Positions 18,158 through 47,710 of a stretch of DNA of 57,610 nt are shown piece after piece. Positions within the stretch are counted from its first letter, which is position 1, and each line of letters opens with the position of its first letter. Source of the stretch: Catajapyx aquilonaris. Taxonomy: Eukaryota. The notes beneath the pieces are model-generated. The model made no database searches. It was not told the DNA's origin and worked only from the letters and a program-made list of their open reading frames with translations. The stretch is from contig JYFJ02002395.1 of NCBI GenBank assembly GCA_000934665.2, forward strand, positions 1-57,610, given 5' to 3'. The position numbers and the translations under genes were made by a program.

Positions 18158-20907
18158 ACGATCTGTTTATATTAAACGGAGCGACCTATGGTGACACCCC
18201 AGGTAGTTTCACCTACTTATCTAAGAAGGGGCAAAGCACAATAGATTACATAATCGTAACGAAAGCCTTGACCTCTTGGGTGGCTGATTTTAAAGTAGTG
18301 AATCAAATTGGGTCAGATCATTTACCTGTATGTTTGACGCTCGAGGTGTCTAGTGCAGGGAAATCACAAGTAGAGACGAAACCAACTACTAAGATGTTTT
18401 TGAAGATTCCCGCGGATGGATTGAATTTTTTGGTGGACAAATTTAATGACTGTTTAATCGGTTTGCAAGACGACACTCTAGATAGGATGGCAGATGAAGT
18501 TGCAACCAAGATCCGCAAAGTATTGGTGGAAGAAGGCATATTGCGCCCTAGTAGGCCATACTTAGGAAAGAAAAACTCCAACCCCTGTTTTGATTCACAA
18601 TTGAAACAGTCACAAGGTCAGGTGAGAGAGCATTTACAAAAATGGCGCAAAACTCTGAACAAAGGTGATAGGATAATGTATGTAGATTCAACAAGATTGC
18701 ATCAAAAACTGGTCCAGGCAAAAAAAAAACTATATTTTTCAACTACAATCCAACTTTTATTAACTAGTAAGAATCCTAGGACTTTTTGGGATCTAATTAA
18801 GCGAAATACACGCCCCCAAATTCGCTGTGAACCACCGAAACAGATTTGGTTTCAATATTTGAAGGAGTTATTTACACTGGTAGAGACGCAAAGCTTGGAA
18901 ATAGCAGAAGTGAATATATATGGATGCCAAATACTAGATGCAGAAATCTCCTTGAGCGAAATCAAAAAGACGATCAAAACACGTAGGCCCGGATCAGCGC
19001 CGGGCCCAGATAACATTTCAAATGCAATGCTGGCAATCGAATCTATCGAATTGCAAAATATATTACAAATCATGTACAATAAAATATTGGATGGTGCTCC
19101 AATCCCCCAAAATTGGGCTCAAATTAAAGTAATCCCTATTTACAAGGGGGGTGATAAGGAATGTCCAGCAAACTTTAGACCGATATTATTGATAAACAAC
19201 GTACTTAAGTTATTAACTGCTATACTGACTGCTCGGCTGAATAAGTGGATCGAGATCAATCAAATTTTGCCTGATGAACAGGCCGGCTTTCGACAAGGTA
19301 GAAGTTGTGCTGACCACATTTTTACGCTGAATGTACTCATACAAAAATACATATCCCCCAAGGGAGGGAAGCTTTTCACCTTGTTTTTGGATCTGTCAAA
19401 GGCTTTTGATAACGTGAGACATGATTTATTGTGGTATAAGCTACAAAAGATAGGAATAGGTGGCAAGCTTCTCTCTGTTATTCAACGTATCTATGGGGCG
19501 GCACATGTTACAGTTGAAAACCATATTGGCTGTGTGCAAGTTACAAAGGGAGTTTTACAGGGAGATTCCTTATCACCTGTATTGTTCAATCTGTTTTTGG
19601 CAGACCTCAAAACAGTACTTATGCAATCAAATATACCTGGAGTTAATTTAGGGCCAAACACTGAAGAAATACATTTTGTGCAATTTGCAGATGACGTGGT
19701 TCTCCTGGCGCCTAATCAACTATATTTGCAAAGGAAAATTCATTTAATTGGGAATTACTTTAATGATTTAAAACTAAATATAAATATTTAAAAAACTAAG
19801 GTAGTAATTTTCAGGAAAGGGGGTATGCTCCCAAAAAACTGTAAGTTTCACCTAAACGGCGAGTTGCTGGAGATAATACCCAGTTACAACTATTTGGGGG
19901 TAGTATTTTCCAGCTCAGGTAAATTCCGGATGGCTGCAGAACAACTGAGAAGCAAGGGTAAAGCAGCGATAGCATCTTTGTGGCCAGTATTAACTAAATT
20001 AAAGGTAAGGCAAATTTCAACAGCCTTCAAGCTATTTGATTCCCGCATCGCATCAATTACTCTTTATAATGCATTTATTTGGGGACTTGAATATTTGGAA
20101 TTAATTGAGCAGATTCAAACCTTCTTCATTAAAAAGTTTCTAACGTTGCCTAAGAATACAGCGGGATATTTCGTTAGGCTGGAGACAGGTCGTAGACCTT
20201 TAGCATTAAAAATAATTAAACATCTGATAAGCTGGCTGGTTAAATTAGGAAATATACAGTCAACCTCACTAATTAAAAGAAGTCTGAAATATGCACTATT
20301 AAATTCCCAGTCCCACCCTATAAAAAGTTGGGCATGGCTAGCAAATCGAGAATTTAATAAAATGGGAATGTCCATCCATGGTTGGTTACAAAATATAGAG
20401 AATATATCCATCCAAAAGGTGCTAATCACATACATCGATGCAACGATTCAACAGGATTATGTAGACCTAGACAATTCAAAGAGATATGCCAACTATGTAT
20501 TACCTTGGTATTACGTAACAATTCTCCATTTCTAGAAAATTATTTAACCTACAACTTACCGCTACATTCAATTAGACTTGTAGCTAACCTCCGGAATGAA
20601 TCCGCATGGTTTTATATAAATGGATACAAAATACAGCTTGACTTAGAGAACTACTGTTCATTATGCAACCTTAAAGAAGAATTCACTATACACCATATGT
20701 TGTACATTTGCCCCTTTTTTTTCTGGCCCGAGGAGAACATTACTTATATCATGGCCTTCGGTCCCACCCGACAGATTAAGCTGGATTCTGGACGATATAC
20801 CAGCTCAGGAAATTTATAAATTATGTTTTTTTTAATAAAGCAAAATTATTATTATTAGAAAATGCTGATATTATATTATAGTAAGCCAATGGATAAATAG
20901 AAAAAAA

Positions 20908-22267: not shown

Positions 22268-22945
22268 CAGGGTGATTACAAATGAATAGTATAATTACAA
22301 ATGCATATAGCTCCGTACCTATCAACCGCACATGAACGTGTTATACACCAAATGAAAGAGGAGGTTTTGAAGTTTATTTCATACCTTATAAATGTTCTAT
22401 ATGACTTCCCTTGATCACTCGAGAAACGTCGATCCGACAGTGCAATTCCTCCCATACTCGTGCCAGCATGTCCGTTGTCACTGACTCAACCGCAGCAACA
22501 ATGCGATGTTTGAGTTCATCCAGGGTTGTTGGCATCGGTGGCTCGTACACAGCATCCTTAACGTACCCCCAAAGGAAGAAGTCGCATGGCGTCAAATCCG
22601 GCGACCTTGGGGGCCAGCAGTAAAGCGACAAGTCTTGCAGGTCACTGCGACCTATCCAACGACGAAGGAGCACATTGTTCAGAAACTGGCGAACATCTGA
22701 ATGCCAGTGCATTGTTACTGCGGTTGAGTCAGTGACAACGGACATTCTGGCACGAGTATGGGAAGAATTGCACTATCGGATCGACGTTTCTCGAGTGACC
22801 AAGGGAAATCATATAGAACATTTATAAGGCATGAAAAAAACTTTAAAACCTCCTCTTTCATTTGGTGTATAACACGTTCATGTACGGTTGATAGGTACGG
22901 AGCTATATGCATTTGTAATTATACTATTCATTTGTAATCACCCTG
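22268..22945. mobile_element. Fold-back Tc1/mariner (Tc3-like) derivative with 237-bp inverted arms
   Basis: TA|CAGGGTG...CACCCTG|TA termini. Arms 22268-22504 and 22709-22945 are near-perfect reverse complements. The minus strand encodes a transposase C-terminus (HWHSDVRQFL..RWIGR..WPPRSPDLTPCDFFLWGYVKD.VY...GSHIEHL*). Confidence 0.95.
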
Positions 22946-24779: not shown

Positions 24780-26227
24780 TCGCAATCATCGAGTGTGAAT
24801 TATTGCATGTCATACCATTGTAAGCGGCACTTCAATAGCTCCCAACCAGTGCGAGACACTCTCAGGTTCGGACCTGTTAAGTGCACAAGTCATCCCCACC
24901 TGAAGCCAGTATTGGTCCAATCACATCCGTTGTCAGGGTCCTATCGTCCATGTGCAAATGATGCAACTGATTCAGTTTCGCGCTGGATAAAAGTTCACTT
25001 GCAAAGAAATCAATTTGTGACTCGTTAATGATCGTGAGGGATTTCCAGTTCCCATTGGTTGACAACAGAATGATACCTATAATGACTTCTTGGCATCTTG
25101 TGAGTCACAGACAGCTTTTCTAGACCTCTGAAAGCATCCCGATTCATTGGAAAGGGTGGAAGTGCAGTAGTCCGTCTGCTGCAAGCGTACTAATCTTGGG
25201 AAATATTTCTCCGATGGCTACCAAGTCTATTCCTGTGCATGTTCAGTCTCTCAAGCGAACCACGGAGACTCACGTTTCGCCTGAAAAGGTTGTCGAGTCC
25301 TGTCACCCTGTACAAGCACAATTCCGCAATCCGAACCATGCAGCCATCCCTCATCAGGGGCTGGAGGTGGGAACCAGTCGCATATCTGATATCGTTAAAT
25401 TCTTGAGGTTCCCAAGTTCGTTTAAGGGGCTTGGATCTGTCTTGATGGCATACTCTATGGACAGACGCTGGAGGCAAGGAAAGTGAGTCACTAACAGTCG
25501 AACAGTGGTTGCATCACCTGTCCTCATGGGTGTGACAAAGTCCTTCAGAGAATAAGTACCCTTGCACAGGTTCAGAACATTCTGCATACTTTCTACTTGC
25601 AAAATTTCCAATTTAGGGAGGTTCTCAAGTAAGTGCAGCGCAACCTCGGCGTTCATGGAAACTCCCACAAATTTTCTTGAGGTGTTTACAGCCTGCCAGG
25701 AGTTTCCATTCGCTTGAGCCATGGCGTCCCTTGTCCCATATGCCCTTCTTAACCACTATCTCTTCCAACAGGGTGCAGTTTTGAATTATGTGTAGAAGAA
25801 CATCTGGGTCCATTGGAACTGCAAATGAGCGCAGTTTTGGCAGATTTGGCATATCATTTGACGACCTCAATGACCAGCAGCTATAAGGTATTGAGAACAG
25901 TTAGGTTAGTCATTGTATGACGAGCACGTGTAAACTGATTGTGGCTGTTGTGGGACAGATGATATTGCCCTACAATCTGAGTGCAATTGGGATGGAAAGC
26001 AGATGCAATTTTACACCGACCTATAAAGTTTGAACACTGCTGGAGGATCCGGTCAACATACTCGTTGGCAAGGGTACTTGGGATGCCCTGGACGTACTGC
26101 CAGACTGATAGTGATTCTTCGTGGCCTCTCCTATTCTCGCATGCGGAGAGAGGACAATGCCAACAACACGAGATAAACACAGTCGCTCCAGACTCTGCGG
26201 CTGCTTCGGCTGCTTCCTTCTCGGCAT
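24780..26227 (-). pseudogene. Frameshifted BC-box + leucine-rich-repeat gene (putative cullin-RING ligase substrate receptor)
   Basis: ATG at 26227: MPRRKQPKQPQSLERLCLSRVV (BC-box-like P.SL..LC...V). LRR-like segments (NLPKLRSF, NCTLLEEI, NLPKLEILQV, FPCLQRLSI, LGNLKNLTI, SLERLNM) follow in several different frames. Putative 5'-UTR intron at 26231-26317. 3' limit approximate. Confidence 0.7.
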
Positions 26228-26403
26228 GGTCTGTGGAGTACATGAAAGATTGAAAGGAATCATGCTGAATAGCCATTGCCCTCAATCACACACCAAATGA
26301 GGCAGGCATATCCTTACCGATCCATTTACTGCTGTAATATCCAGACTGCAATTCCTTAATTACCGTATACTCATGTAGTAACAAATTCCCCCTTCAAACC
26401 ATA

Positions 26404-26548
26404 CAGGGTGTTTCTCAACTCGCGTCCAAAACTTCTAGGGTGAACTCCTGAGCACCGGTGAATCGCTTCACCTGCTCTATGTAAAGTGATCCACCAGTGC
26501 ACACGAGTTCAACCTCAAAGTTTTGGACACGAGTTGTGAAACACCTTG
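26404..26548. mobile_element. Tc1/mariner-type MITE
   Basis: TA|cagggtgtttctcaactcgcgtccaaaactt ... aagttttggacacgagttgtgaaacaccttg|TA. Confidence 0.85.
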
Positions 26549-26628
26549 TACCGGTATAATTCCCCGTGAGCCAAGTCGCTCACCTTAGTCTATAGTCTCG
26601 AACCATGCGCCAAGTCTACGAGTTGTAA

Positions 26629-27070
26629 GTGATGCGGCCAATGGGGTCGGTCACTTTTATACCAGTGACTATTAGGGGGAAGGTTTTCCACACTAAGATT
26701 CTGGTGGTTAAGAAACCCCTTTTTCCTATCATTTTGGGGATGGACTTTCTAGTGAAGTCGGGTTGTGTAGTGAATTACCAGAAGTTGGTGCTCACTTGTG
26801 CATCCCCAGAGGCAGATCGATCCGTTTTGGATCCGGGCACATATGTGAAAGCAGTGCCGGCAGGGTGGTTGTCGCCCTCCTGTACTAGTAGGGGTGGTCG
26901 ATCCACAGTGGGAAACTGCGCAACAACATGACTTGTTAATAGCACGTTGCCTAGTGAGCCCAACCAAAGAAGACAACCATGTGGTGGTGCCCATTCGTGT
27001 GAGTAATCCTCTGAACAGGAACGGGGTGATTCCGGCCGACACAATTTTGGGGTGTTTGGCTCCGGTAATC
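26629..27070 (+). mobile_element. Gypsy-type protease and protease-RT linker fragment
   Basis: RPMGSV..PVTIRG..F...ILVV...FPIILGMDFL...GCVVNY, then a frameshifted LIARCLV......VPIRVSNP.....IPADTILG. Confidence 0.65.
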
Positions 27071-27743
27071 ACCGGAAAGGAGAAGTTGGCAGTGCCCAGG
27101 GGCGTAGGAGCCAAGTTATTGGTAATCATTCGGAGATTGCAATCCCACGTTTCTAATGACAAATGGGTTGTCCTAGGTAACCATCTTCACATGGTTAATA
27201 TCAAATCACATGTCAAAGGCAGGTGAATAGTATGGATTCTGGTGTTAATGGCCTGTCAGCGCATGCATACTGATCGCACCACATAGGCTGAATGTGTAGT
27301 GTCTGCAGTTGTTGGACCTACTTGTCAGATTTCTATGCCTCAACTATGCCTCAAATGTGAGTGAGGGTCGAATGTTGATATAAAAAATCAGTAGTGTACT
27401 TGTGGAACAATAAACCAATTGGAAAGTGCCACAATAAATGACGACAACAACGGGCTGCACAGAGAGATTTACATCACATGTCAGTAAAATTTTGTTGAGC
27501 TTGGAGGGCAACGCATAAAGAAGTACTGGCTCGTTGCACTAAAATATAAGGTAGAGTCTGTTTGTCGCCACAGTACTTCCATGAGACATGCAAATTATTC
27601 ATGTCATCCCATGACCAGTTATGATAATGTTGACTTAACGCCTGGCAACTTAATACGAGAATAAATTATCACATGTTGATCTTGTTACATTGGAGGTATA
27701 CAAGGAAGTACACGTTCTGTAGGAAGTATTTTCATTTTAGGCG

Positions 27744-28010
27744 CCCCCCGATGGTATCTCCACCTTATCGTGGTGGTGGGGTTTGCGTTTCTCCCGTGAC
27801 CCCAAGAGCTATGCCGGCGGTAGCTTCGTCTACTGGTAGGGCCACCCAAGCCGGACAGGTCTTTGGGATAGGAGACAGACTAAGAGAGATGCCAGTCTTT
27901 CCTCTCTTCTTTTCCCTCTTCGTTTCTCTCTCCATCTGTCCCACCTTTGCTTCTTCTTACAGCCAGATAGCCACAGTTGCTTTGGCTCCTTCCTAATAAA
28001 CCAAACCAAC
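27744..28010 (+). mobile_element. Short non-autonomous RTE-derived retroelement (RTE/BovB-like 5' region plus (CAAAC)n tail)
   Basis: 11-bp TSD cattttaggcg at 27733-27743 and 28011-28021. 5' part ccttatcgtgg..ggggtttgcg..gagctatgccg..agggccacccaagccggacaggtc resembles the conserved RTE/BovB 5' UTR. Ends aataaaccaaaccaac. Confidence 0.8.
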
Positions 28011-28869
28011 CATTTTAGGCGGAATCCAATTCCAATCACGTCCCCACACTGTGCCAAACTGACATTTTTACAGCTGGATGCTTAACTTTGCATAAGTAAA
28101 GTAGATGTGTGTCAGACAAAGTTATTCAAGTGGCACACGTCGCAATAGGAGTAGAATCACTGTTTGAATTTTTGTGGCATGTTCTTTATTGTCAAAAATA
28201 ATAATTAAGCTCACTGTGTCAGTTAGTGATGGGCAAGTTGTATAATGTTATGTCCCTTGGGATAACGAGGAAAAATGAAAGATATTTAGCGAATCAGGTG
28301 CGCTAATTTTTCAGGTTAATTTTGCTGTCATTTTTGCGGAGGTTGGTGCTCTACACTGCCCTTTCTCTCTCCTTCGACCAATGATGGAATGATGGTGTAC
28401 AGCAAGAGAGTATGGTCAAACTGGCCAAGGACCGTTGCCTAAAGTCCCACATTATTTGTGCTTCAGTTGGTCGGAATGCTTGGTTACATCAGACTGAGTA
28501 ATCATGAGAACGTGTCTTCCGTGATATGGGATATGGTGAAAAGTTTTTGTAATGGCATAATAAGTTTGCATTTTCCCGAAAGTAATCGTCATCAACCCAA
28601 TAGTTTTTTTTGTGTCGCAAGCTGTAAATTCCAAATTCTAATATTATTTAATAGAAGAGTAGCAATGTGCTCTAGTTTGGTGATGCTGTTCATTTTTTTC
28701 TGTGGGTATAACTGGTGATCTAATTATGAACTTCAATTTGACACGGGGAATTTACTGAGTTGACAAGAAACTTTAATTTAATTACGGTGTTGTTTCACAG
28801 CCTGTGTCCCTTTAATATAAGGCAACACATAAAGATATACTGGCTGGTTGCATCGAGTCTGTTTGTCGC

Positions 28870-29011
28870 CAACCTTGTGGGCAATTATGTTTAAAACCAA
28901 GGAACCCTCCTCGTCCATGCTGGTGATGGGCAGATGGTCTTCCGGGCACACCAGAGGTGGGACCTTGCACAGAAAAGACTTGATGGCAGGATAGTGTGGA
29001 TCCAACTCGGG
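28870..29011 (-). pseudogene. Copied fragment of DUF229 gene exon 2
   Basis: Matches 44764-44904 with 6 substitutions and 1 indel (PELDP..PAIKSFL.KVPPLVCPED.LPITSMDEEGSLVLNI.AH). Confidence 0.95.
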
Positions 29012-30196
29012 CTCAAGTAAATGAGTGTAAAACAAGTTGTATTTACAAAAATGGTGTAGTTGGTTATTATTGAGTTTGGTGTAGGCTACTTGCAAGTATA
29101 GAGAAGTGGCTTATGTTGAGACATAATACCCAAGAATATTTACATAGAGGTTTCACATGGTTAAAATAGGACTTTAACCCATGTTCCCACACATGGTTCA
29201 TTACATGGCAGTCTGATTACACTACCAAAGAAAAAATTACATTACAAATAGTTTCGACACTGACCGGTTCCTTTCTGCATCTGAGAGTAACATGTGCACG
29301 TCAGGTGCTATCTACTTTCTTGCGCTCATTTACAGCAGGTACGGTGCTCTGTGATTGCACTCAGTTTAACGCCATTACATAAGACTGGTGCTGTTGGTGG
29401 AATATCCTTCTGCTCATCAGTGCCCATCATGAGGCTAGTCGGCATTTAAAAGCAATGTATTAATTGTTTATTAGTACACATATCGTAGTGTACACCGGCT
29501 TCTCTGTGGGAAACATCTTATTGAAGTAATTGTCGTTACAACACTCACCTATGCACATGTTCCTTGCATGAAGAAACGACAAGAACTGCTCTCCACAACA
29601 TACAATATATTTGATGGGAAATGGTGAACAGTACTTGCTGTAATGGAGTAATAATAAGTTTGGTCCTTCTATTGTTGCATCTTGGTTTCAGCATAGGTTG
29701 GTCTTGACACATTCATTATTTTATGAGTTACTCCAAGAACTAATTTCATCGTGCCATTCTGCTCTGATATGGTGTATATCATGCCTGAAAAGAAAATTCC
29801 CTTACATTAGATTTGCTCAATTAGTTGCGATAAGGTGTTGTCACATACACAACTAAGTAGAAATGAAAAGCATGTCGTGTAGCAATTGCACCTTCATTTG
29901 AGAACATGGATCCATCCAAATTGCAGTAGACACATGAAAGCACACAGTTTTACTCGATGGCATATTATAGACTGTATAATCTTGCACAGTTGCTCAGTAA
30001 ACCACATCGCGGTTTGCAACAAAGTAGTAATGTTCAATACAAAGAAAACGCACAAATGAGCAATGTCGATTAAGTCGTTACAGATTATTAGTCTCTGACC
30101 AAAATATATTTATGTTTTATATTTTCCATGGTAACCAGAATCAACCTGGCAGGTGGCTCATCCACATTCTTTTTTTGAGTTTATTGTCTAGGAGAG

Positions 30197-32435
30197 ATGG
30201 ACGAAGCAGTTGTAAGTTCTACTCTTAACGTAGGTTTTGAATGGGAAGAACATGTGTCTCTTTCTTTATCACAAACTAGACCGTCTGTAGACGAATGTCA
30301 CATTGCATGTGTCGCTATATAAATTAAAATGGAAGTACTGACTCTGCATGCCCTAAGGACATGGCCTGAAATCAATTAATATGCTTGGCCTCATAAAATT
30401 CTGTTGGCTACGTTTGCATCGCTTTTGTCGTGTGCATTTGAAGCTTTATAGCGGCTACACGACCGCTTCTCTTTTTCTTAAAAGAACATGCTTTGTTTTT
30501 AACATTTACAAGATTGGTTGACAAATTAAATTTGCCAGGCGAACCATGTATTATTATGCAGTTTCTCTTGTCTGGGCGTATGGACCTAATCAAGATCCAA
30601 GTTCCTCCCTAATTATTTGCATGCTGCACATTGCATATCGTCAGTACGTACATGTACAGAATGGGTCGTACTTTAAAGGCGCTTTTACATGTGAACGATT
30701 TTACAAACGAAGCGGAGTGTAGTAACCAATATTGTTTGAGTTGAAAGTAACAATCGATTTTCACCTCAAACAATACTGGTTACTCGGGTTACGCAGCGTT
30801 GTTACCGCTCGGAGAAGACTTCGCTCGTCAAATCGCTCACATGTAAACGCAGCATAAATATGTCATAATAATTAGTGTTTTCTACGTTGTAACCAGCCCG
30901 TTCCAAATGAACAAGTGGAATGTGTTGGCAACATTTGTTGTTTACACTTCCCCTTTCCTAAGTTAGTCTAATGTCATTGGAATGGGATCCTCGGTTGCAA
31001 AGGTCAGTTAAAATTCCTACCAAGCCAAGCATACGGGGTAATGCAGAGTAATATCAGGCTGTCTTAGAATGTCCATGGTCATTAAGCGTAATTGTGAATG
31101 GCTGTTGTACATGAATGGGATCAAATAGTTCCGAGGAATGTTCGGCTGAAGCATTGAATCGGCTAAGATAATATTCATAAGTTATGTTTTTAAACAGTTG
31201 CCTATGACGCTTCTTCTGTTGGTGAAGTCGCAATGGCTGCCAACAATGTCTATGATAATGCTCAATTAGTGAGAAGAGTCTTACAAACTCCTGTAATTTT
31301 CTTGGCTTCTCCTAGGTTCCTTGCCATGCCCTCCTTAGGTCCAGTTTTAATCCAACCTTTCACAATGGCTCAAAAGCGCTATACTGCGCCAAACTGTTTC
31401 ATTTATTGCAATCAACAGTAATGATGGCGATTATACGTAAGTTGCACACCATCCATGCTGAACCGGACACTGTAATTAAATGTTAAGAGTCGGTTAAAAG
31501 TTTGGAGCAACTGGGTATTATAGTCACCGTGCCTCCTTCACTGGTCCGATCCTTTCAAACTTGCAGGGTGTTGAGGATTCTAAAGACATGAAGTACAACA
31601 GTTCGGATGAAGAGGACCCCGCATTTGTGGGCCGCAGCTCGGACAAGGAGAATGGGCCTAGACCCGAGGCGATCATCCTGCTATGCCAGCAGAGTGTAGG
31701 TGGAGGGGATGTCGCGCTCGATGCGGGAGAGAAAGAAGCTGTGATGCCATCGGAGGAGGCGAGCCAGGACTTTGCGGATGAGACTCCAGCAGGAGTAGGC
31801 ACCAAGAAGGTAGTTGCGCTGTCCGCCCTGGCCCCTTGCTTCTACCCCAGGCAGCATCACCAGCCCGCCATATTCATCGGGGACCTACGTCCTGCGGTGT
31901 ACAGGTTCCTCCCAGGCGAGAGGCTGCCGGATATTGACCCGTGCCTGACCACAGGGGAGCTCCAGAGGTCCAAGCCTCTCCTGAGCTCATGGTGGAGCGT
32001 GTGGGTGATCCACTCCCACCAGAAGAGGAACAGGTGGGGGGACAACCTGGCCCCCGTCACCTACATGCAGTCGCTGCCTGCCTTCCTGCGGTGAGAATCG
32101 TTAGGATTACGGATTACGAGAGAACAGGGTCATCATAATGAATATGATCTAAACACAATTATAGGCTGGACAGGGTATACAATGTAACGAGCCTAGTCTG
32201 ACAATAATAGTTTTAAAAATGCTTTTTGATGTTACATGTCCAGGTCATGGGAAGAACTGGGCGACCCGGGTCCCCTGACCACCTGCGGGCACGACTACGC
32301 TTGCTTCAGGCACGGGGTGAAGCCCATGTGGGAGTCGGACCGGAACAAGTACGGAGGACACTTCCGCATCCTGCTGGGGAAGAACGCTCCTCGGGACATG
32401 ATCAGGGACAAGTGGATGCAGAGCGTAGGCCTCAC

Positions 32436-32502
<67 letters not shown>

Positions 32503-33287
32503 CAGTCTTAAGAATCTTTGATCACCTGATGGTTGATTTGCCTTTCCTTTTCCGCAGCTTTTGTGCATCATTGGTGCTGGTTTTGGCTGGTACGGTATCC
32601 AGGTCACCGGAGCCATCGCAAGCTGCAGGCCCAGGGGGAATCGGATCGAGGTCTGGACCGAAGATTCAGACCAGGAGGTGGCCATCTTCCACATCGGGTG
32701 AGTTGGGCAAAACACTTTTATATGCTCTGATCTTTTTTAGCGAGGGTCCAAAATGACATCGCCGCTGTTGTTGTCATTGCTAAAATGACGTCAAAGGTCG
32801 TTCAGACTTGCTAAATATATCAGAGTGTAGCTGTTGCTTCGTTGCATTCTGAAATGAATTTTCCATTAATGACAAACTCTGGTTTTAGCTAATTATTATT
32901 AAAATGCAGGATTAACCAGAAGTGCTCAACTGAACATTTAAGCGATTCGGACTCATTTAGATGCGAGCGATGAAACCACTTGTTTGGGGGCAATGGTAAC
33001 AATCACGTTTCGCTCCCAAACAATTGACTTCATCGCTGCATATAGCGCTGATCAAATCGCTCAAATGTGCTCAAATGTGAGGCCGTAAATGTATGGAGAG
33101 GTCATTATTGAGAAGTTTGCTGTGCTGGACCGGATTAAACTGAAGATGGTTTCTGTTCCGTTGCAGGCAGCAGCTTAAGGAAATGTGGGATATTCCCAGT
33201 GGAACCAAGCTCTGCTACTACTGCCACACAGACATATTTGAGTGGGGCCAGCAGGAGGCCATGAAAAACCCTCGCTACCGGATCTGA
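30197..33287 (+). CDS. Divergent eIF4E-family cap-binding protein with long acidic N-terminal extension and PAM2-like motif (about 326 aa)
   Basis: Exons joined by hand, all GT-AG and phase-consistent: 30197-30211 (MDEAV, donor gtaagt; least certain exon), 31567-32090, 32244-32424, 32558-32697, 33167-33287 (TGA). Core reads KPLLSSWWSVW...RWGDNL...DYACFRHGVKPMWESDRNKYGG...DKWMQSLLCIIG...VTGAIASCRPRGNRIEVWT...HIG...YCHTD, collinear with the eIF4E fold. Alternative start at ATG 31588. Confidence 0.9.
30677..30854. mobile_element. PIF/Harbinger-like MITE (gcgtttacatgtgagcga family), in the first intron of the eIF4E-like gene
   Basis: TAA on both flanks; imperfect TIRs ..tttacatgtga.cgattt / aaatcgctcacatgtaaac.. 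Related copies at about 32930-33070, 35965-36063, 49054-49184 and 50197-50320. Confidence 0.8.
32436..32502. repeat. (AAT)n microsatellite in an eIF4E-like intron
   Basis: Pure taa repeats. Confidence 0.98.
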
Positions 33288-33633
33288 TGGGATGCAGCGA
33301 CTCTCTTCCTCCTGTTCTGGTTGGCAGCTAGAAAAAAGAAAAAAAAATCTGGAGTACTGGGACGTTGGTGTTCCCCGCAGGAATTCAGGTGTTTTTTTTT
33401 TGCGTGTGTTTTTTGTTATCTGTGTATGTGTGGGAGTGGATTGGTGCGGGGTTGAATAATTGTACTAGTTTGATGCTGAATGAGAATGTGTGTGTGATTA
33501 TTGGCAGTGTGAGAGTGTGAGAATGTGCTTGATGATTAGAGTTTTTTTATTTGTGTCAATTTAAATGAGACATTATATGGTTGTAACTTTATTTTGGTGT
33601 CATAAAAATGAATATTGTAACAGTGTGTTCCTC

Positions 33634-33864
33634 TTGCATTTCTCCCATGACCCCCGAGAGCTATGCCGGCGGTATAGCTTCGTCTACTGGTAGGGCCACC
33701 CAAGCCGGACAGGTCTTTGGGATAGGAGACAGACTAAGAGAGATGCCAGTCTTTCCTCTCTTCTTTTTCCTCTTCGTTTCTCTCTCCATCTGTCCCACCT
33801 TTGCGTCTTCTTATAGCCAGATAGCCATAGTCGCTTTGGCTTCTTCCTAATAAACCAAACCAAC
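33634..33864 (+). mobile_element. Second, 5'-truncated copy of the RTE-derived short element
   Basis: Highly similar to 27783-28010. A third small fragment lies on the minus strand near 39872-39918. Confidence 0.85.
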
Positions 33865-34221
33865 TACGACACCGAGTGTCATGTACTGTACACCATACGG
33901 TCTTGGCCAAATTTGATGTCATGTAACAACAGAGAAAAGTCAACAGCATGCGTGTTTTTGGTGTGGGGGCCCAAGTTTGCATGGCGAGGAGAACTGTGCT
34001 GCGAGTCAAACGACATGTAAAAATTGCTGAAGAAAAGTACACTTTGCTCATGTTTGCCGCGATATAAAGACTGACACATTAGGTGCAGTTGTAGAACCAT
34101 ATGAAAAAGAGCACATTTTTTTACTATAAATACATTGCTCTCACAGTATTCTCACCAATCTACCTGTAAGTACCGGTATAATCTCTTCACATTTACATGC
34201 AAGTAATAATTAGGCATACGA

Positions 34222-34572
34222 GGGGAGGTGTGGTGGCCGTGATGGTAACGTCACGGCTTGCTGTGTGAAAGGCCCCAGGTTCGATCCCCGCCTGGGGAAC
34301 TTTCCTTTCACCTGCGTCGGGAGGGTCTCTGACCTGCACCAAGGAGGTGTCTGGCAACCTAACCTCCTGGGGAACAGCACATGACCCGTTTTCAGACGTG
34401 CACCTTGGACCCATGTTCCCTCCCCAAAAATCCCCTATCCCTTCCCCATGTCCTTTCATCCTTGCACCGGAGTGAAGAAGAAAAAATAGAAAATTGAAGA
34501 AAATGGTGGTATCCCACCCCCCTAAGGCCCTAGCATGGGGTAACGTAAAAAAAATAAAATAAATAAAAAATA
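34222..34572 (+). mobile_element. tRNA-derived SINE
   Basis: A-box TGGCCGTGATGG at 34234-34245, B-box GGTTCGATCCC at 34278-34288, A-rich tail, TSD aggcatacga at 34212-34221 and 34573-34582. Confidence 0.85.
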
Positions 34573-35135
34573 AGGCATACGATAATGCAAACCAACCAAG
34601 TGCTCAGTGTAACGCTCAAAAAAGGACGACGGTTCAGCACACACTTTTTAAAGTACTGTGTACACATATTCATGTGGGTGCGACGGGTCTTTTATGACTC
34701 CACACATTCAGGCCAGAAGTATAAAGAATTATGACGAGCACTGCAGTCATTAAAAAGATGGGGTGATACAATCCCAAACGATCCCATCAAACTGTTCAAC
34801 CGGGCAGATTGCAGTAATTAGAGTGATTTCAAAGTCACTATCAATCTACCCTGGAGAGCCAAAAGACTGATATGAGAAATAAGAGCCTTTGTCAAGATCA
34901 AACACAAAAGGTTCCTGAGTGCAGGCTCATTTGTAATAAAATTATTGCCAACATCAGTTAATTCGGCAATGGGGCACGACTTGCCCAGCTGCGCAACCAG
35001 TTTCTATCTAACTGACTGACGGTAATGGCATCATTTTAACCAGCACTAATAATGTGACACATGCACGATTTTCGGTCTCAACTTCAGTCGCAAACTCACA
35101 AGTCGGAGAAAACCCCCAACCATGTCAAAAATAAA

Positions 35136-35779
35136 GCCACACAGTGATCATCATCATCATCATCATCATCATATCGCCTTCTACGACCTGGACAATCTCC
35201 TATAAGATTTCCTCCTAAATAAAGACTCATACAATATCTTACCACTGCAAATAAATTCTGACATTACTAATTTCGAGGCGATCCAAGGCATATTTGATAT
35301 TTCATTGGTGGTCAGAAGTCTCTGGACAATATCAAGAAAAGCTGAATATACCATAAGTGACCAGGTGTGCATCAGAGAAGAAACAGTGCAGAGATGCAGA
35401 CGCCCAGTAGACCCCGAACGGGAAGGTTGGGATTTTTCCTCGCTCCCGTCTTGCTGATTCGAGTGTCGGCGATCAGCCCCAGCTGACGACGGACCGTAAA
35501 CAATCTCCGTGTGTGAGTGAGATGGAGGGTAATGGGGAGCAGATCTCCAGGCCAGCTATTAGTAGCCAGCTGGAAAACCTCAAGCTGGACATTATCACCA
35601 GTGTGGACACCTCCATCACGAGCCTGAAGAACTCTTGGGAAGATGCCACACAGTGATCATCATCATCATCATATCATATCACCCTCTACGACCTGGATAA
35701 TCTCCTACAAGATTTCCTCCTAAATAAAGACTCCTACAATATCTTACCACTGCAAATAAATTCTGACATTACTAATTTC
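35136..35779 (+). repeat. Direct repeats of about 135 bp (35136-35274 and 35645-35779) flanking a 370-bp insert
   Basis: gccacacagtgatc(atc)n...ctacgacctgga.aatctccta.aagatttcctcctaaataaagactc...actaatttc occurs twice. Confidence 0.85.
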
Positions 35780-35837
35780 ATGTAATGGCAAGTATACACA
35801 GATAATAATTTGGATCCTGATATTTTTTATCGCTGAA

Positions 35838-37092
35838 TTAAGCAGCACATCCGCTGCATCTCTTCCCCTTTTTGCCTTCTTCTTCTCCTCTCAGGACAAC
35901 TGCAGGGTAATTTTCTGCAGTTAGTTTAGCGTAACTTTATAACGTAAATATGTTCATGAACTTATGCCGCGTTTACATGTGAGCGACGTACATCGCTAGT
36001 GAAAGTAACAATTGTGGTAACAATGCCCCAAACAATTGCTGATCAAATCGCTCACATGTAAACTTATGCATTTATTATTGTCACTCATAAATAACTCATA
36101 AATAATGCAAAAAAAATTACTTAACATCTCAAGGTGCTTTCAAAATTTAACGCATCCATTTTCATAGGAAATTTATAATAACTGACCAATGTCATCATCA
36201 GATTCGTTAGTGACAATTGAGTAGGTGTCTCCCCGTAGTTCAGCCATTAAACTGTCTTGGAAAGCAAGACCAGCCAGCCGGAAGAAGAAATCTGCAACAC
36301 CATCCCCAGTCTTGTTGGACACTAGCCACAACTCGGCTCCTAAATGATCGGCCACTTCGCTTCCATTCCGAAGTGCATCCTGATACACCTTGGAGACTTG
36401 CTGAACCAAAAAAAAAAAAAAAAAATGTTTTTAGCGGAGAAACAACACTTTTGTTCCAGTTCCGATGGCTGTGTCACCGAAGAACATACCAGGGCGTCAC
36501 TCTTGGTCCCAACAAGGAATATCATAGGTCGATGGCCCAAGTTGTCTTCAATAGCGACATGGTACCAGCTCACGGTGTGACGCAAGGTTCGAGAATCCGT
36601 ACTGTCATACACCAGTACAACAACTGGAAGTAAATGCCAACACATTATACAAGACACCTGCCTTTACATTGGTAACAACTTGACCAACTGACCCTGGGCA
36701 GTGTGATAAAATGATGCTTTCTGACGATGCAAATTCTTCCCAGAAGTGTCCCACATGTGAACGTTGAAAGGCATACTCATCACATCGAATCGCTCCATTT
36801 GGAAGTCCACTCCTAGTGTTGGTTTGTAGTTGACTGAGAATTTGTTGTGGCAGAAGCGATGGACCAGAGCAGTCTTTCCGGTGGCACAGTCGCCCAGGAG
36901 GAGGACTTTGCATATACGCAGAGCACTACGACCGAGGCCTCGTCCGCTCCGCCTGAATATCTCAACCTCAGGTGAGAAGTCACCTTGCTGGTACGGACTT
37001 GATTCTGGAACCTGTGGTGGCGGAAACGTTGACACCTGACGATCAGCCCTGGCATTTTTCTGCATCATCCTGTACATTCCCCACGGATCCAT
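35838..37092 (-). CDS. Rab34/Rab36-like small GTPase with divergent switch II (about 269 aa)
   Basis: Exons 37092-36693, 36623-36490, 36400-36187, 35899-35838, all GT-AG, total 810 nt in frame. G1 GDCATGKT, G2 YKPTLGVDF, G3 WDTSGK, G4 GTKSD, G5 VSNK. The N-terminal extension, RFC..KF..NYK.T.GVDF.MERF and FFRLA..AF are typical of Rab34/36. C-terminus KKGKRCSGCAA*. Confidence 0.85.
35965..36063. mobile_element. Shortened MITE of the same family, in Rab-like intron 3
   Basis: gtttacatgtgagcga ... tcgctcacatgtaaac inverted termini. Confidence 0.7.
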
Positions 37093-38019
37093 AATTTGGG
37101 CCTGAATATTTTTCTACCTATAGGGAAGAAGCTGGTTTGCCATCATTCTTGGTTGTAATCTTCACACTGTTTTACGTAACACCTTCAGCCTTCGGGAAAA
37201 TTAAAAACATCTCGGAGAGACATGTTCTTGCCACATCTAAATATTGTTCCCAAGGTTATCGCCACCTTGCTTCATGCACATGAACTTACCCTACTTCCCC
37301 TTATAAAATACTCTGATACATACCAATGTAATGTTATTGCTTCAAAAGGCATCAGCACGACCACGAATTGTTTACAGGTGTCGCTATGGATATTTGTTAA
37401 TTGATATTTTAATATTGTTATGAAATACTGGAAGTGTACTGTACAAGTTGGACAATAATAATAATGGGCCGTTACGTCACAATGTGTTAACACAATTTTA
37501 ATCCGTCAGTATCAGAGAACATTTTCTTGCAGAACCACTTACTAATCCTGACCCCCTGATCAGGCAGGCAATTTCGAAGAAGCATCATGTGACATCACTC
37601 TTCAGCAGTCCGCCATCATTGTCCAATACAACTCTTCCCCAGCGTCGAAAGCAAAATCTCTCTCTCAGGTCAACCACTGATAGAAACATAGGCACCGAGC
37701 CCCGACCAAACGAGTCCAGCCAAAAATGTCGACCCCCACACTAACCAAGCCCAACGACATTCACAGCATGTCGTCAGTCGCACATCTTGCATATGACAAT
37801 CCTACGTACCTGTGACGGCTGAGAGCTCAAAGCGATTTTTGCAGTTTGCTATGAAGTACATTCATGCTACAGACGCCACTGAAAACTAGGCGGCTGGTTA
37901 TACATATTCATATGATCTCAATTAAGCAAAGACATACAATGCTCAAGAAATAGAGCAAATCATCAACAATCTGGCGTACTAACCAACATGCAGGGAGCAT
38001 GAGAGGCGGATATCACCAT

Positions 38020-42270: not shown

Positions 42271-45239
42271 CTACCTGAGACTCTGGGGTTGACTAGTTGC
42301 CCCACTGTTGTCCTCTGCTCCTTGCCCGCCTTCCATTTCCTCCTGCACAACTGTGGGCTTGTCTTTGCACAGACAATACAGTCTGAGTACAGCCGCGTGC
42401 TTGAGGCAGCTGGCCTGCGAGCCGTACCTGTTGATTCTGTTCACATCCCCGACCACTTCGAAAGGATCGAAAGCTGATCTCTGCAACAGTGCTTCAAGGT
42501 GCGCACTGTTGGGGGAGGTCTCCACCGAAACCCGCAGCTGCACTACCAAAGACGTACTGGACGGTGAACTACCGGACACAGCGTAGCTGGGGAGCACCAC
42601 CACTGCGGTCAGCACTCGCTAGAAATAGATTGCGTTACACAAGCACATTACGTACTGGATACGAAAAAGGTACCTTCAGCTGCAACATGTAGCACCATTC
42701 GGAGATTGGCTCCAGCATTGCATTCACGTGATCCACAAGCGCCTCAGCTGCCCTGATCACGTCGTCGTCATCATTAGGCAATGGCTCCTCCGCCACGCAC
42801 ACGCAGTATTCGGGCAGCACGCCCGCATCGGCACACGTTCTGTTCTTGCTCACTTGCTGCCTCCACAGCGGGATGCCATACCTGGAGGACGACTTCTCGG
42901 TCACGGGCTGCTCGAAGGTTCGCTCCAGAACATCCCGCAGCATCTCATGGATGTCAAACCAGGAAATCAGCGAGTGGGAATTGGAGACGAGGGTGGGTTT
43001 CAGATGTGGGTGAATGGCTTGCATCCACTTTGGGATGATTATGCTGAGGAAGGGCATGCGCTCCTCTAAGCGGCCATAAATCGTAGAGCGGATGGCATCG
43101 AATCTGACGAGGAAAAGACAAGACAAGTGTTTATTGGATGTTGTCCCTAATAATACTTGTTGAAAATTAGCACATGCCAATTTAATTACAGTTACTGATT
43201 AATCAACAACTACGAGGGTTAATTCCGGGAACTCTGAACACTACTTGACCAACCGACCTATTTCCATGGTCTCCCATGACAATGAGAAGGGTCTTGTCCA
43301 GCAATCCCCCATCCACAGCGCCCTTCAGCATGTCCATCATGTCCTGGTCGATGACTTGAACTTGGTTGATGTCCCCATGGCTGACCTCGGACACAAAGGA
43401 AAACCCAAAGTATCGCCCCTCTTCTTCCCTCTGGGCCCGGAGGAACCTCTTGGCATACTCGAGGATCAGCTGGTGCTTGGGTCTTGACCCGAAGCACAGG
43501 TAGCGCCCTTTCCTGTGCACCGTGGTGTTCTCCGAGGCCATCCAGAAAGGACGCATGTAGTAGTCAACAGGCTGCTGTTTGAACCCCAACGTCGGGTAGT
43601 TGAACAGCGCGTATTGGGGCATGTCTTCCGCATACATTGTGGCATACCTGTACGTACAAAATATGTAATTGGCTGGACTCCACTAGACTGACTAAGTACT
43701 GACCCTGCATCTCTGAAAACATGCCAAAGAAGTGGCATCTGGTCCATGTATCGGTGGGCAAACTCCCTCCTGGGCCACTTGAACTCGTGGTGAGCATCGT
43801 TGGTCGACACTCTCAGGCCAGTCAGGAGGGGAATGATGTTTGGAAAGGTGTTGTCGCCAACTTTTGTGATGCCTCGCATCACAACCGCATCCAGCTTCTG
43901 AGTCAGGTACGCGTAGGTTTTGGGCAGTTGCCGGATAAAATTGGGCTGGGACATGGAATCAACTGCAAGGATAAATATTGATGGGGGCGGAGGGTGGTTG
44001 GGTGACATGGTGAGCGGAGGAGACGGAGTGAACGAGATGGGTTTAGGGAAAATGTGGACGTACTCGTACCACATTGTGGCGCCAGAGACGCACTGGACTA
44101 GACAAGTGTCACCTTTCAGGCGATGAGTTCCACGCAGGACCTGAAGAGAAGCATACACACATGTAGCTAACCGTGCAACTGAAATAGCCTCGTCTGGATA
44201 TGCAGACGAGGCATTGAACTGCTTTGTATTCATGACTTCACATGAGCAACATATCAGAGCAATTATATTCAATTTGATGCAATGAAAGGGATACCCCCAA
44301 CAGCTGGCTTATGTAACGATGATTGACAGGCAATTATGCGCATGAATCAGCTGCTGGGATCATTCGATACCAAGCACTTCCTAAGTGTATTACTCACTAC
44401 TGACATGTCAAATGTGCAATCCAAATTACGCACCTTATAAATCTTTCATGTCACGCAAACACAACACGAAACAAAAACATCCTCAAACACACAATGCGCA
44501 CATGCAATAATATCGAGGGGTTAGTCACTTATGAAGTCATTCCGACAGAAGTCCGTCGTACACTATACTGTGACTAACCCTTCGAATAAAATACATGCAA
44601 TAAACATAAAAAATTAACATGCAAAAAATTAAGAACAGGCAAACCCACACAGTCTACATTCCTATGCGTTGCTAACCTGCGGTGGACCATACGCCAGGTG
44701 ATTGTCGTCTTCTAACCAGACCTCGTAATAGGTGCACCTGACATGTGGAGCTTTAACCTTGAGCAACCTGTGGGCAGTTATGTTTAAAACCAAGGAACCC
44801 TCCTCGTCCATGCTGGTGATGGGCAGCTGGTCTTCCGGGCACACCAGAGGTGGGACCTTCCGCAGAAAAGACTTGATGGCAGGATCGCGTGGATCCAACT
44901 CGGGAAGGACACACTCGGAGTCACTCCCGTTCTTCCCCGATCCGCGTGACACCCAGTTGTCATTCAGGTGAAATCTGCAGAGAAGTACGGTTAGTTCAGG
45001 CCGCATGAGTTGGGCATGTACTGATATCGTTACCTGGAAAAGTATCTGGCGTAAAATTCCCTCTGGACTTGACCCTGATGCATCACGTAGAGCACGTAGG
45101 CCAGTCCCAGAAGCACCAGGAGGAGGTACAGACGCAGACAACGGCGGACCCAGCGCGGGTGAAGCTTCAGCATGCATCGCCAATCCCTGGACGAGGACTG
45201 GAAGCAGTGGGACAGCAGAGGGGACGGGGTCAAGGCCAT
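42271..45239 (-). CDS. DUF229-family type II membrane protein (alkaline phosphatase/sulfatase-like superfamily)
   Basis: Exons 45239-45034, 44974-44677, 44140-43704, 43647-43258, 43103-42674, 42618-42271 with GT-AG junctions. N-terminal TM segment (LYLLLVLLGLAYVLYV). Motifs ILAVDSMS..NFIRQLPKT, KVGDNTFPN, GYATMYAED, GF..QPVDYYMRP, VMGDHGNRF, GRLEERMP, RTCADAGV..EYC.C, R.NRYG.Q..C. Start codon and last exon uncertain. Confidence 0.9.
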
Positions 45240-47710
45240 GGTGGGAGGAAGGGGATGGGGGTGAGAGGAAGGGACCAAAGGGGAAGTGTCCGACGAACAC
45301 ACCCTGCGAAAAGGAGAGCAATGAGAATTACGATGCATCTGGCAACAGGAAATCCGACGTACTACAAAATTGCAATACAAGCGCAGGAAAAAATAATCGT
45401 CATCAGTCGATGTAACCTTGAAGCGATAATGCCTTCCTGACAGGCTTTGACTAGTGACATGTTCTTTGTCGAGTTTGGCAGACCCATAGTCGCACTTTTA
45501 AAATACACTCAATATTTCAATAATGCGCAGTTGTGACAGTAAAAATGTAGAATCACTCCTGATGTTCACGACAGTACATTAAATAGACAACTAAACGTCG
45601 CCCTGTGCAGTCAATAAATCAATTACACTGCAACTGTTCCCTACATACAGTTCAATTAATAGCTTAAGTATTAATTAATAATTCATATGACAATGGGCAG
45701 TATGTGATAAGGTCAAGGTTTACAATCCCTAATATTGAACAGGACTTGCCGTTTAAACATTAGTGATGCAACCACCTCCTAGCCCTTATTAGCTACGGTC
45801 GTAAAAAGTTTTAACTGTTGGAGCGAATATCCTCCAATTGAGAAAAGGAAGTTGATGCGGACCAAGGTTGCTGTCCATTCCGGTGCACATACTAGCTCTA
45901 TTCCTACCAGTTCAGATGAATCGTCACCATTTCAACAACAATTGCTGAGTGTCGATTTAGATGCTAATATACTAGCCTCTATAACTGAGAATTCAGCGTC
46001 ACAGCAACATTAACGCTTATTATTACCACATTTTATATACATTATTTGCATACACAGCCTGCACATATGTGTCCGTCAGCGAGTCATACAAAGCATTTCA
46101 TTTATTTATCACATCATTAATCAGAACTGCTCCCTTTCTGCGAGATAGATGGGGACAGGTGCGGACATAAGTACTTCGGGGCTTCGGTTAATGCAGACAA
46201 AATATTTGATTACAGGACTGTATGACAAAGCTGCATCGGAAGCAGCTGATATTTGATCCCAGAAATTACCACTGCACATTACATCTTTAAAAAAAAAAGC
46301 GGCAACATGAGACCTCAAGGATTATCCTGCTGGACTGTAGCCAAATCCATGTCGCAGAGCAAACTACTGGAAATAAAATCTGGGGGGTCCCGCAGGTGCA
46401 GCGGTTATCAAACATGCATCCGACAGTAATCAATCGAATGCTAATAACATGAAATGAAGGTGTAATTGGTGTGCCTTCGGGCGACCCCAAAAAAAAAAAA
46501 AGTTAATCACATGCTTCGGGCTGATCCATAATGAATCCGCTACATGATCACCCACAAAAAAAAAAAAAGGAATACAGAATTATCTGCAATGAACTATGAA
46601 ATTATCTCTCACGCAATGAAATCCAATTTCACATTATTTGGGCTGCGGAATTATTCGCAAACGTACACCTCCTGTATTAACACATAAATAGAAACATTCC
46701 TCGCAGGTAGTGGGGCAACATGTCCCTGCATTCCAAGACTAAAAAATTTAACGAGAAATTCTGACATGTCGCCTCAAGGCTGCGCAAGTTTCGCACCTGG
46801 CACAGTCTTGGTAATTGCTGACGGTGAAGTACTTTGCAAGCACGGTTAACGCAGTAAATATTCCATATGTTGACTACTGCATGAAGGCCAAGGAATTCAT
46901 CAATACTGTGACACAGAGCAATTTGGCCCAATTATTTACCGCCGGCCGCAATTCGGAAACGGCTGGCAAAATATTATTCCGAACCCTTGAGGAACATACG
47001 CATTTTTCAACCCGACGAAACCGAAGTTATTAAAAATAATGCGAACAAATTGACGTGACTTCACGACTTGCTTGTAGGTAACCAAAGTCGACCCACAATT
47101 TTGGTCCGCCTTTGTCCTGCGGATGCTCGTAAATATTCAACCGCAATAAATTCCTGACCCGCTGTTACGCACGCTCATAAATTACTGTTCCAACTACCCG
47201 GTATCATCACACGTTGTCTCATTTTCACATCCGAAATTACCCCCCTAATTAGCATACACCGACGCTCCCTCATAATCCCTGGCTAAACTGTGCATGTCTT
47301 GGACACAACCAATTTTTATATTATTAAACCCCTGCCTGACCTCCTGAGCATAATGCCCCACCTGATGCCCAGCTAGTCCCCCTTCCCGTACCCGGTATGG
47401 CGGTACGTCTCCCTCTCCACGGACCTGGAACATACAGTACCTCATGCCCTGTGAAGCGTATCCATGCCTGGAACGGTCGCCATCGACCCTCCCTTCGACT
47501 GGTGGTGGTGGCTACCTAGTTGTCCGTCCCCTCCTTCCTTCCTTTCCTTCCACAGCCGGCCACACACTGTCCCTTCCCCCTGCTGATCAATGCCGGCTCA
47601 CAGGAAGCTTCGAGAGGGGGCCACCAGCCGGGTGGATGGAACCAAAGAGACACACACACACAAAAAGGGAGGGCTATTTATATAGGCCTATATAAAAAAA
47701 AGAGTGGGAA

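Follow-up and report, generated by a model that had tools for sequence, protein, structure and literature searches.

A divergent class I-type eIF4E gene of Catajapyx aquilonaris with most cap-contacting residues and a rewritten docking surface for eIF4G and 4E-BP

Introduction

Can an animal eIF4E keep the pocket that holds the mRNA cap and yet lose the surface on which eIF4G and the 4E-BPs dock? The question is raised by an eIF4E-like gene on the plus strand (31588-33287) of a 57,610-nucleotide stretch of the Catajapyx aquilonaris genome (assembly GCA_000934665.2, contig JYFJ02002395.1, positions 1 to 57,610 of the forward strand), all of which was analysed and is referred to here as the window. 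An earlier note, made from the DNA letters, had described the product as a class-I-like cap binder uncoupled from eIF4G and from TOR/4E-BP control. Paralogs of eIF4E are a main animal route to tissue- and stage-specific translational control, and the analysis presented here favours, with about an even chance of being right, a real, lineage-restricted and fast-evolving class I eIF4E paralog that would bind the cap and in which, as judged from residue identities, canonical eIF4G/4E-BP docking would be lost or strongly weakened.

Results

A four-exon reading frame with coding character

The gene consists of four exons separated by three introns, all with GT-AG borders, and the spliced open reading frame of 945 nucleotides encodes 314 residues with no internal stop. 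The coding exons, with the human eIF4E positions that they cover, are as follows.

31588-32090 (+): coding exon 1, with the start ATG, a 128-residue N-terminal extension and the eIF4E core up to position 73; GT donor at 32091
32244-32424 (+): coding exon 2, positions 74-133, including W197/E198 (W102/E103) and H207/F208 (R112/W113); Pfam and PDB match
32558-32697 (+): coding exon 3, positions 134-180, including R252 (R157), R257 (K162) and W261 (W166); Pfam and PDB match
33167-33287 (+): coding exon 4, C-terminal strands and tail, with Q304 in the S209 column and the TGA stop at 33285-33287

Exon 1 ends in phase 2, within codon 168. At its other end the reading frame is open already from 31498, a good acceptor lies at 31566 and no in-frame ATG occurs between 31498 and 31588; the start codon was taken as 31588, and a non-coding exon further upstream is possible.

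The base composition of the locus follows this model closely. The four GC peaks are the four exons (GC 0.52-0.63 against a background of about 0.4), and at the 5' edge of exon 1 the GC content steps from about 0.42 to 0.61 at about 31550-31620. The 3.5 kb upstream contain no comparable GC block, except for a repeat and a minus-strand exon-like fragment. The GC content at third codon positions (GC3) is 0.76, against 0.23-0.41 for the introns and about 0.42 for the flanks; the corresponding GC3 values are 0.5-0.68 for the neighbouring host genes, taken over stop-to-stop frames, and 0.375 for a long interspersed nuclear element (LINE) in the window. An (AAT)n microsatellite at about 32437-32503 takes up half of the 133-nucleotide intron 2 (GC 0.23). 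When the product was used as a tblastn query, no second copy was found in the window.

The open frame, the GC3 value and the long terminal branch of the protein (2.12 changes per column, see below) argue for a real gene under selection, which bears out the view in the earlier note that the intact multi-exon frame favours a functional gene. That the frame is still open after so many changes suggests selection through most of the history of the gene.

Family assignment and human numbering

The Pfam family IF4E (PF01652) was matched by exon 2 at 34.7 bits and by exon 3 at 28.6 bits (cut-off 28.7), and exons 1 and 4 gave nothing relevant in Pfam. In phmmer searches of the PDB, residues 15-59 of exon 2 aligned without gaps to residues 88-132 of human eIF4E (1ipb_A, a full-length chain), and residues 1-47 of exon 3 aligned, again without gaps, to residues 134-180 of the same chain. 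The best PDB scores for both exons were those of human and mouse eIF4E1 chains; 4EHP scored lower on exon 2 and was not in the list of matches to exon 3. Exon 1 by itself found no match in the PDB at E <= 10.

Because exon 1 alone is without a Pfam or PDB match, the N-terminal third of the core was placed via a purpose-built profile of animal class I proteins. The family panel for this profile was collected by a search with exon 2 and then by a second search with an alignment of seven full-length matches, from which the best 120 of 1013 matches were available. This gathered 146 proteins, from which 23 were dropped (an ankyrin false positive, and lengths below 180 or above 300 residues); the 123 that make up the profile are mostly from arthropods and fish and are biased to that extent. 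The spliced product scored 131.9 bits against the profile over human positions 38-204 (hmmsearch, the E-value of which refers to a one-sequence search), in an alignment that holds three single-residue insertions. Human numbering was set via panel protein P0028, residues 31-125 of which correspond without gaps to 40-134 of 1ipb_A. Alignment with MAFFT L-INS-i independently gives the same columns from human position 38 onward, with the two methods one residue apart at columns 38/39, around the inserted L131. The interval between W56 and G88 carries one extra residue in the eIF4E-like protein.

Both methods place W136, W139 and W150 at W43, W46 and W56. Class II proteins (4EHP) carry Tyr, Phe or Leu at position 56, and those of animals do so at 43 as well; class III proteins (eIF4E3) have Cys or Tyr at 56. 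The product, with Trp at both 43 and 56 (W136 and W150), departs from those patterns and follows the class I rule, Trp at 43 and 56, as it is worded in the passages cited (PMC1260017, PMC11791286; here and below, papers are cited for particular passages). A stricter definition of class I names eight Trp residues, at 43, 46, 56, 73, 102, 113, 130 and 166 (PMC3388326), and six of the eight are present here, with Leu at 73 and Phe at 113. The label 'class-I-like' in the earlier note is thus sound by the W43/W56 rule and not by the eight-Trp definition.

The docking surface is rewritten at helix α1

The elements of the docking surface that bear most directly on partner binding are the following.

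31972-31977 (+): K129-P130, at H37-P38 (MAFFT)
32071-32088 (+): SLPAFL in place of (S/T)VxxFW, with L163 (32074-32076) at V69 and L167 (32086-32088) at W73
32248-32250 (+): W170, the Trp of RSWEE, second full codon of exon 2, aligned to Y76

Contacts to eIF4G and the 4E-BPs are made by H37, P38, V69, W73, L131, E132 and L135 (PMC1260017). Only P38 and L135, two of the seven, are identical here, and the protein does not show the residue set of a prototypical binder. The changes across this surface are H37K, V69L, E70P, D71A, W73L, L75S, Y76W, N77E, H78E, L131M and E132Q; the surface or core residues that are retained are F72 (F166), P38, L39, W130 and L135. The replacement of H37 by Lys, suspected in the earlier note, was recovered in the MAFFT alignment, the profile alignment beginning at model residue 131. 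Moreover, the altered positions are seldom altered in the panel, where V69 is found in 106, H37 in 119 and W73 in 120 of the 123 proteins. The three without W73 are P0027, which has Phe, and two predictions whose homology begins only near column 74. P0027 (246 residues) is itself another long-branch eIF4E, with a terminal branch of 1.72 and, by eye, a residue other than His at 37.

Non-aromatic substitution of W73 breaks binding of both eIF4G and 4E-BP (PMC1260017, PMC3388326). A second site, the lateral pocket, comprises F47, I63, L75 and I79 (PMC8558276), and here these positions are occupied by V140, V157, S169 and L173.

The placement of the helix was examined by a register scan over positions 66-80. 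This gave +2.9 with W170 on Y76 and -9.4 with W170 on column 73, a figure that precedes the gap cost of the two indels which that shift needs; every other shift was also negative. In the chosen register, positions 69/72/73/76/79 read L/F/L/W/L and so match the hydrophobic pattern of the family. The reading of the motif as SLPAFL (V69L, W73L) in the earlier note is confirmed by the profile, by MAFFT and by the scan. That note had allowed that the Trp of RSWEE might belong at position 73; by these three approaches, and by the position of the intron, W170 falls on Y76.

The codon at column 74 is interrupted by intron 1, and intron 2 falls between columns 133 and 134. In a set of 22 class I predictions that are fragments or chimeras, homology starts at 72-76 in six and ends at 133-138 in 11. 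The fragments that end at 133-138 usually continue with Val-Ser or Val-Gly, as would be expected of read-through of a GT donor, and one fish isoform has an insertion exactly at 133/134. Read in this way from protein predictions, the data fit introns 1 and 2 being at conserved class I positions. An exon border at columns 74/75 would anchor exon 2, and hence W170, independently of sequence similarity, and the shared intron positions would support an origin by DNA-level duplication of a class I gene. As a separate observation, many public eIF4E fragments (within P0004-P0029) stop at 133/134 or begin at 74/75 and look like exon-sized gene calls.

The cap pocket retains its base contacts

The residues that line the cap slot lie in exons 1, 2 and 3.

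32035-32037 (+): W150, at W56, a cap-stacking Trp (profile, MAFFT)
32329-32334 (+): W197-E198, at W102-E103, a cap-stacking Trp and the guanine-binding Glu (PDB alignment, MAFFT)
32359-32364 (+): H207-F208, replacing R112-W113, a phosphate contact and a class-defining Trp (PDB alignment, MAFFT)
32627-32656 (+): R252 (R157), R254 (K159), R257 (K162) and W261 (W166) (PDB alignment, MAFFT)

The cap-contact set W56, W102, E103 and W166 is complete (W150, W197, E198 and W261), and two of its members, E103 and W166, have been called non-variable across all eukaryotes studied (PMC11791286). As for the basic residues that contact the phosphates, R157 is kept, K162 is Arg and R112 is His, in a column that is Arg in 123 of the 123 animal class I proteins. 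At the far end of the core the S209 column holds Q304 in the MAFFT alignment, a change that the earlier note had not listed. The residues that it did list, W56, W102, E103, R157 and W166 as retained and K162 as Arg, were all found as described by the profile, PDB and MAFFT alignments. Its wider statement that the cap pocket is kept stands for the stacking, guanine and methyl contacts; it does not extend to all of the phosphate contacts, as R112 is His.

Cap binding is likely, since the base contacts are present and so are two of the three basic residues at the phosphates, and on the strength of these residues the protein has probably retained binding to the 7-methylguanosine (m7G) cap. Its affinity may be altered, and possibly lowered, as R112 is His. 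Fungal proteins are widely variable at R/K112 and K/R162, and yeast cdc33 is still partly rescued by a class that has R/K112C (PMC11791286).

The protein is highly divergent and stands alone in the collections searched

Identity to the 123 animal class I proteins over the core is 27-36%, with a median of 31.5%. In a FastTree tree restricted to class I proteins, built from the gene model and those 122 family rows in which 140 or more of the 171 core columns are filled, the protein sits at the end of a branch of 2.12 changes per column, where the median terminal branch is 0.077; the placement of the protein in this tree is unsettled, with long-branch attraction flagged. Of the family columns conserved at 90% or more it keeps 29 of 57. 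These losses are not spread evenly, as 2 of the 12 such columns at positions 66-85 are kept and 27 of the 45 in the remainder of the core (Fisher p = 0.0099, a value that is indicative only, the region having been picked after the alignment was viewed). Change is concentrated on helix α1, yet it is not confined there.

Searches for closer relatives were uniformly negative. None of the 132 candidates from a word-indexed search with the exon 1 open reading frame (198 residues, including 30 before the Met) reached E <= 0.001, and the same kind of search with exon 2 gave no candidate with three shared words. Exon 2 found 29 matches among 1.84 billion representatives, none above 50% identity and none with the unusual residues; the top match was rejected as an ankyrin-repeat false positive, and the others were ordinary eIF4Es. 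A metagenome scan with exon 1 found no relative. One metagenome locus (L001) from the exon 2 scan was discarded, as its translation matched one peptide pattern by chance and was no eIF4E. The ESM Atlas gave no usable match to exon 1, and keyword searches of the open-access literature surfaced no animal eIF4E with W73L, V69L and a PAM2-like extension.

A PAM2-like motif in the N-terminal extension

The 128-residue extension contains one short motif of note.

31819-31848 (+): PAM2-like LSALAPCFYP, residues 78-87 of the extension (pattern match)

The PAM2 consensus is LNxxAxEFxP, in which F10 is the main determinant and N4 stabilises a turn (PMC7356810). LSALAPCFYP keeps L3, A7, F10 and P12, and has Ser at position 4 and Cys at position 9, where the consensus has N4 and E9. 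When the window was translated in all six frames (115,216 residues), the pattern L[NST]xxAxxFxP matched nowhere else; among 200,000 shuffled versions of the 128-residue extension, 86 contained it. The motif has no Pfam match at E <= 1.

Genomic surroundings

Four host genes were recognised in the neighbourhood of the eIF4E-like gene, and none has an evident tie to translation.

36664-37113 (-): Ras-family small GTPase
42635-44308 (-): DUF229-family protein
49805-50137 (-): class II aldolase/adducin-domain protein, methylthioribulose-phosphate dehydratase-like by eye
53532-55346 (+): amidohydrolase, N-acetylglucosamine-6-phosphate deacetylase-like by eye

The eIF4E-like gene is flanked by two direct copies of a 231-nucleotide element (27783-28010 and 33634-33864), about 95% identical and 5.85 kb apart. 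The element has no further copies in the window and no Rfam match, and Rfam found no family over 26000-36000 as a whole. The only AATAAA 3' of the stop codon (33849) is inside the downstream copy. Capture of the gene by a transposon, with the 231-nucleotide repeats as its marks, was considered and set aside, since the element is present just twice and the gene contains introns.

Upstream of the eIF4E-like gene, a 142-nucleotide segment (28870-29011, minus strand) is 95% identical to 44764-44904 (minus strand). The latter sits in an open frame (44662-45327, minus strand) just upstream of the Pfam-matching exons of the DUF229-family gene; this frame has no Pfam match itself and is presumably an exon of that gene. 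The duplicate suggests a local segmental duplication. Further upstream of the eIF4E-like gene lie a LINE-type reverse transcriptase open reading frame (18151-20535, plus strand; RVT_1, E = 1.3e-30), a PIF1-like helicase fragment (14282-14842, minus strand; E = 6e-10) that is possibly a Helitron remnant, and an open reading frame (22386-22772, minus strand) that by eye resembles the tail of a mariner-type transposase and has no Pfam match.

Discussion

A probable cap binder with a proposed loss of canonical docking

From the gene structure, homology and residue identities described above we infer cap binding, a loss of partner binding and any role of the protein. In the favoured reading, the core would hold the m7G cap through the two stacking Trp residues, the Glu that binds guanine, the Trp that contacts the methyl group, and two of the three basic residues at the phosphates. 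The dorsal groove that receives the YxxxxL-phi helix of the partners (helix α1 and the N-terminal HP element), along with part of the lateral pocket, appears to be rewritten, and the likeliest consequence would be that canonical eIF4G/4E-BP binding is lost or strongly weakened. The protein might then serve as a specialised cap binder outside eIF4F and TOR/4E-BP control, in mRNA storage, in repression or with a partner of its own. The proposal in the earlier note that the protein is uncoupled from eIF4G and 4E-BP draws support from the SLPAFL motif and from the retention of only two of seven contacts. Complete uncoupling is an overstatement in view of Drosophila eIF4E-3 and of the hydrophobic groove, both considered below.

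Several observations weigh against the favoured reading. Helix α1 is barely recognisable against the family, the score of its best register being +2.9. Three changes that were missing from the earlier note, R112H, D104S (S199) and W113F (F208), each affect a column in which all 123 class I proteins agree, and all three touch or adjoin the cap slot. Neither an orthologue nor a paralogue was present in any of the collections searched. Zebrafish eIF4E-1B, moreover, is said to keep the canonical residues. It binds neither the cap nor eIF4G nor 4E-BP in vitro (PMC1260017), and if it is indeed canonical yet non-binding, then residue lists predict binding poorly in both directions. Finally, Drosophila eIF4E-3, which is without W73 (PMC1260017), binds eIF4G and eIF4G-2, and not 4E-BP (PMC13733232).

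The last of these points leads to the main alternative, which is possible though clearly less probable than loss: the docking surface has been remodelled, in which case the protein would bind an eIF4G, possibly a paralog dedicated to it, or some other 4E-interacting protein, and would be free of 4E-BP alone. It is the main rival because Drosophila eIF4E-3 binds eIF4G and because the groove stays hydrophobic (L163, L167, M226 and L230); with P38, L39 and W130 also kept, a different or lineage-specific helix could dock there. Three of the four lateral pocket residues are hydrophobic (V140, V157 and L173), a new Trp, W170, stands one helical turn past position 73, and a focus of change on one surface resembles re-specification more than decay. 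A remodelled docking surface is also reported for trypanosomatid eIF4Es, and Leishmania eIF4E4, for one, binds eIF4G3 via residues unlike the human ones (PMC6379680). However, H37, V69, W73 and E132 are all changed together here, the E70P and D71A changes remove the acidic pair of the motif, and non-aromatic W73 substitutions abolish binding in the eIF4Es tested (PMC1260017). Nor is a candidate partner encoded in the window.

It is unlikely that the gene yields no working cap binder at all, whether as an unexpressed or recently inactivated duplicate or as a protein with the fold kept and cap binding lost. The lack of a relative in any collection, the retention of only 29 of 57 strongly conserved columns, the alteration of R112, D104 and W113 together with Gln in the S209 column, an exon 1 that is unrecognisable to Pfam and the PDB by itself, and a setting that includes repeats and a duplicate of part of an exon from a neighbouring gene would all suit such a fate, and an unexpressed locus would be merely another decaying duplicate. 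Set against this, the four-exon frame is open with canonical splice sites in spite of 2.12 changes per column, its GC3 of 0.76 is far above the values for the introns and the LINE, and all four direct cap-base contacts and R157 are kept; the fungal variation at R/K112 and K/R162, with partial rescue of yeast cdc33 by the R/K112C class (PMC11791286), also speaks against this reading.

That the register is wrong, with the RSWEE Trp as the true W73 on an essentially canonical docking surface, is highly improbable: the divergence of helix α1, for which +2.9 is the best score on offer, and the extra residue between W56 and G88, which forces an indel somewhere, leave some room for an error, but the required +3 register scores -9.4 plus two indels, puts Ser in the buried F72 column and Pro in the I79 column where register 0 gives the hydrophobic series L/F/L/W/L, runs counter to both the profile hidden Markov model and MAFFT, and ignores the coincidence of intron 1 with a recurrent exon border at columns 74/75.

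A further reading would give the PAM2-like motif a part to play. The protein would then be a self-sufficient end-joining eIF4E, with the cap in its core, the MLLE domain of PABP on the PAM2-like motif and the eIF4G/4E-BP groove erased. This is a doubtful proposition, which we rate below either the remodelled surface or the absence of a working cap binder. If true, it would provide an eIF4G-free, TOR-insensitive closed loop, for mRNA silencing or storage or for initiation without eIF4F. A protein in which the cap slot was kept, the docking residues lost and a PABP-type motif gained would be a natural separation-of-function protein and a tool for studying the effects of cap binding in isolation from eIF4G. 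Among metazoans it would be the equivalent of the bridge that Leishmania eIF4E4 forms with PABP1, minus the eIF4G link, and it would imply that the trypanosomatid shortcut from cap to PABP arose more than once.

Comparison with known systems

The nearest known proteins are the metazoan class I eIF4Es (eIF4E-1/eIF4E1A and eIF4E1c), with which the protein shares the PF01652 fold, a profile match over the whole core, two intron positions and W43, W46, W56, W102, E103, W130, R157 and W166. It differs from them in W73L, W113F, R112H, D104S, H37K, V69L, Gln at S209 and the 128-residue extension. Vertebrate eIF4E1b reportedly keeps W73 and the canonical motif, and the protein described here is far more divergent. 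The likeness lies in the proposed role, since eIF4E1b is described as a germline class I paralog that acts in a non-canonical manner and protects dormant mRNAs instead of promoting translation (PMC10883267).

Drosophila eIF4E-3 (the eIF4E-1d of Joshi et al. 2005) is the closest animal parallel at position 73. All non-protist eIF4Es but one kept W73 in the 2005 survey, and eIF4E-3 was then the sole member of classes I-III without it (PMC1260017). Like the protein described here, it is an animal class I paralog without Trp73, and it is free of 4E-BP regulation (PMC13733232). It is unlike the protein proposed here in that it binds eIF4G, eIF4G-2 and, strongly, a cap analogue, and the passages of the same paper that describe it mention no N-terminal PAM2-like motif (PMC13733232).

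Substitutions of the kind seen here are better known outside animals. In the Guillardia theta nucleomorph eIF4E both V69 and W73 are Leu, the Encephalitozoon cuniculi eIF4E and Giardia eIF4E1 have Leu at 73, and the mimivirus eIF4E is without Trp73 (PMC1260017, PMC3388326). W113 is also substituted in protist eIF4Es, by Phe in the alveolates (PMC3388326). The protist W73L cases, however, come from protists or highly reduced genomes and have short termini, whereas the Catajapyx gene lies in an intron- and repeat-rich genome and its product is nearest to animal class I.

With respect to the extension, the best parallel is Leishmania eIF4E4 (the trypanosomatid EIF4E3/4 type), which has a long N-terminal extension with a PAM2 motif that binds the MLLE-type domain of PABP1 (PMC6379680). 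Two differences stand out. The dorsal face of eIF4E4 still binds eIF4G3, and its motif, MNPNATEFMP, keeps N4 and E9 (PMC6379680), both of which are absent from LSALAPCFYP, a motif that is PAM2-like by sequence. Overall, W73L is not new in nature, as the protists show, and is rare in animals, where it occurs here in a highly derived class I-type paralog.

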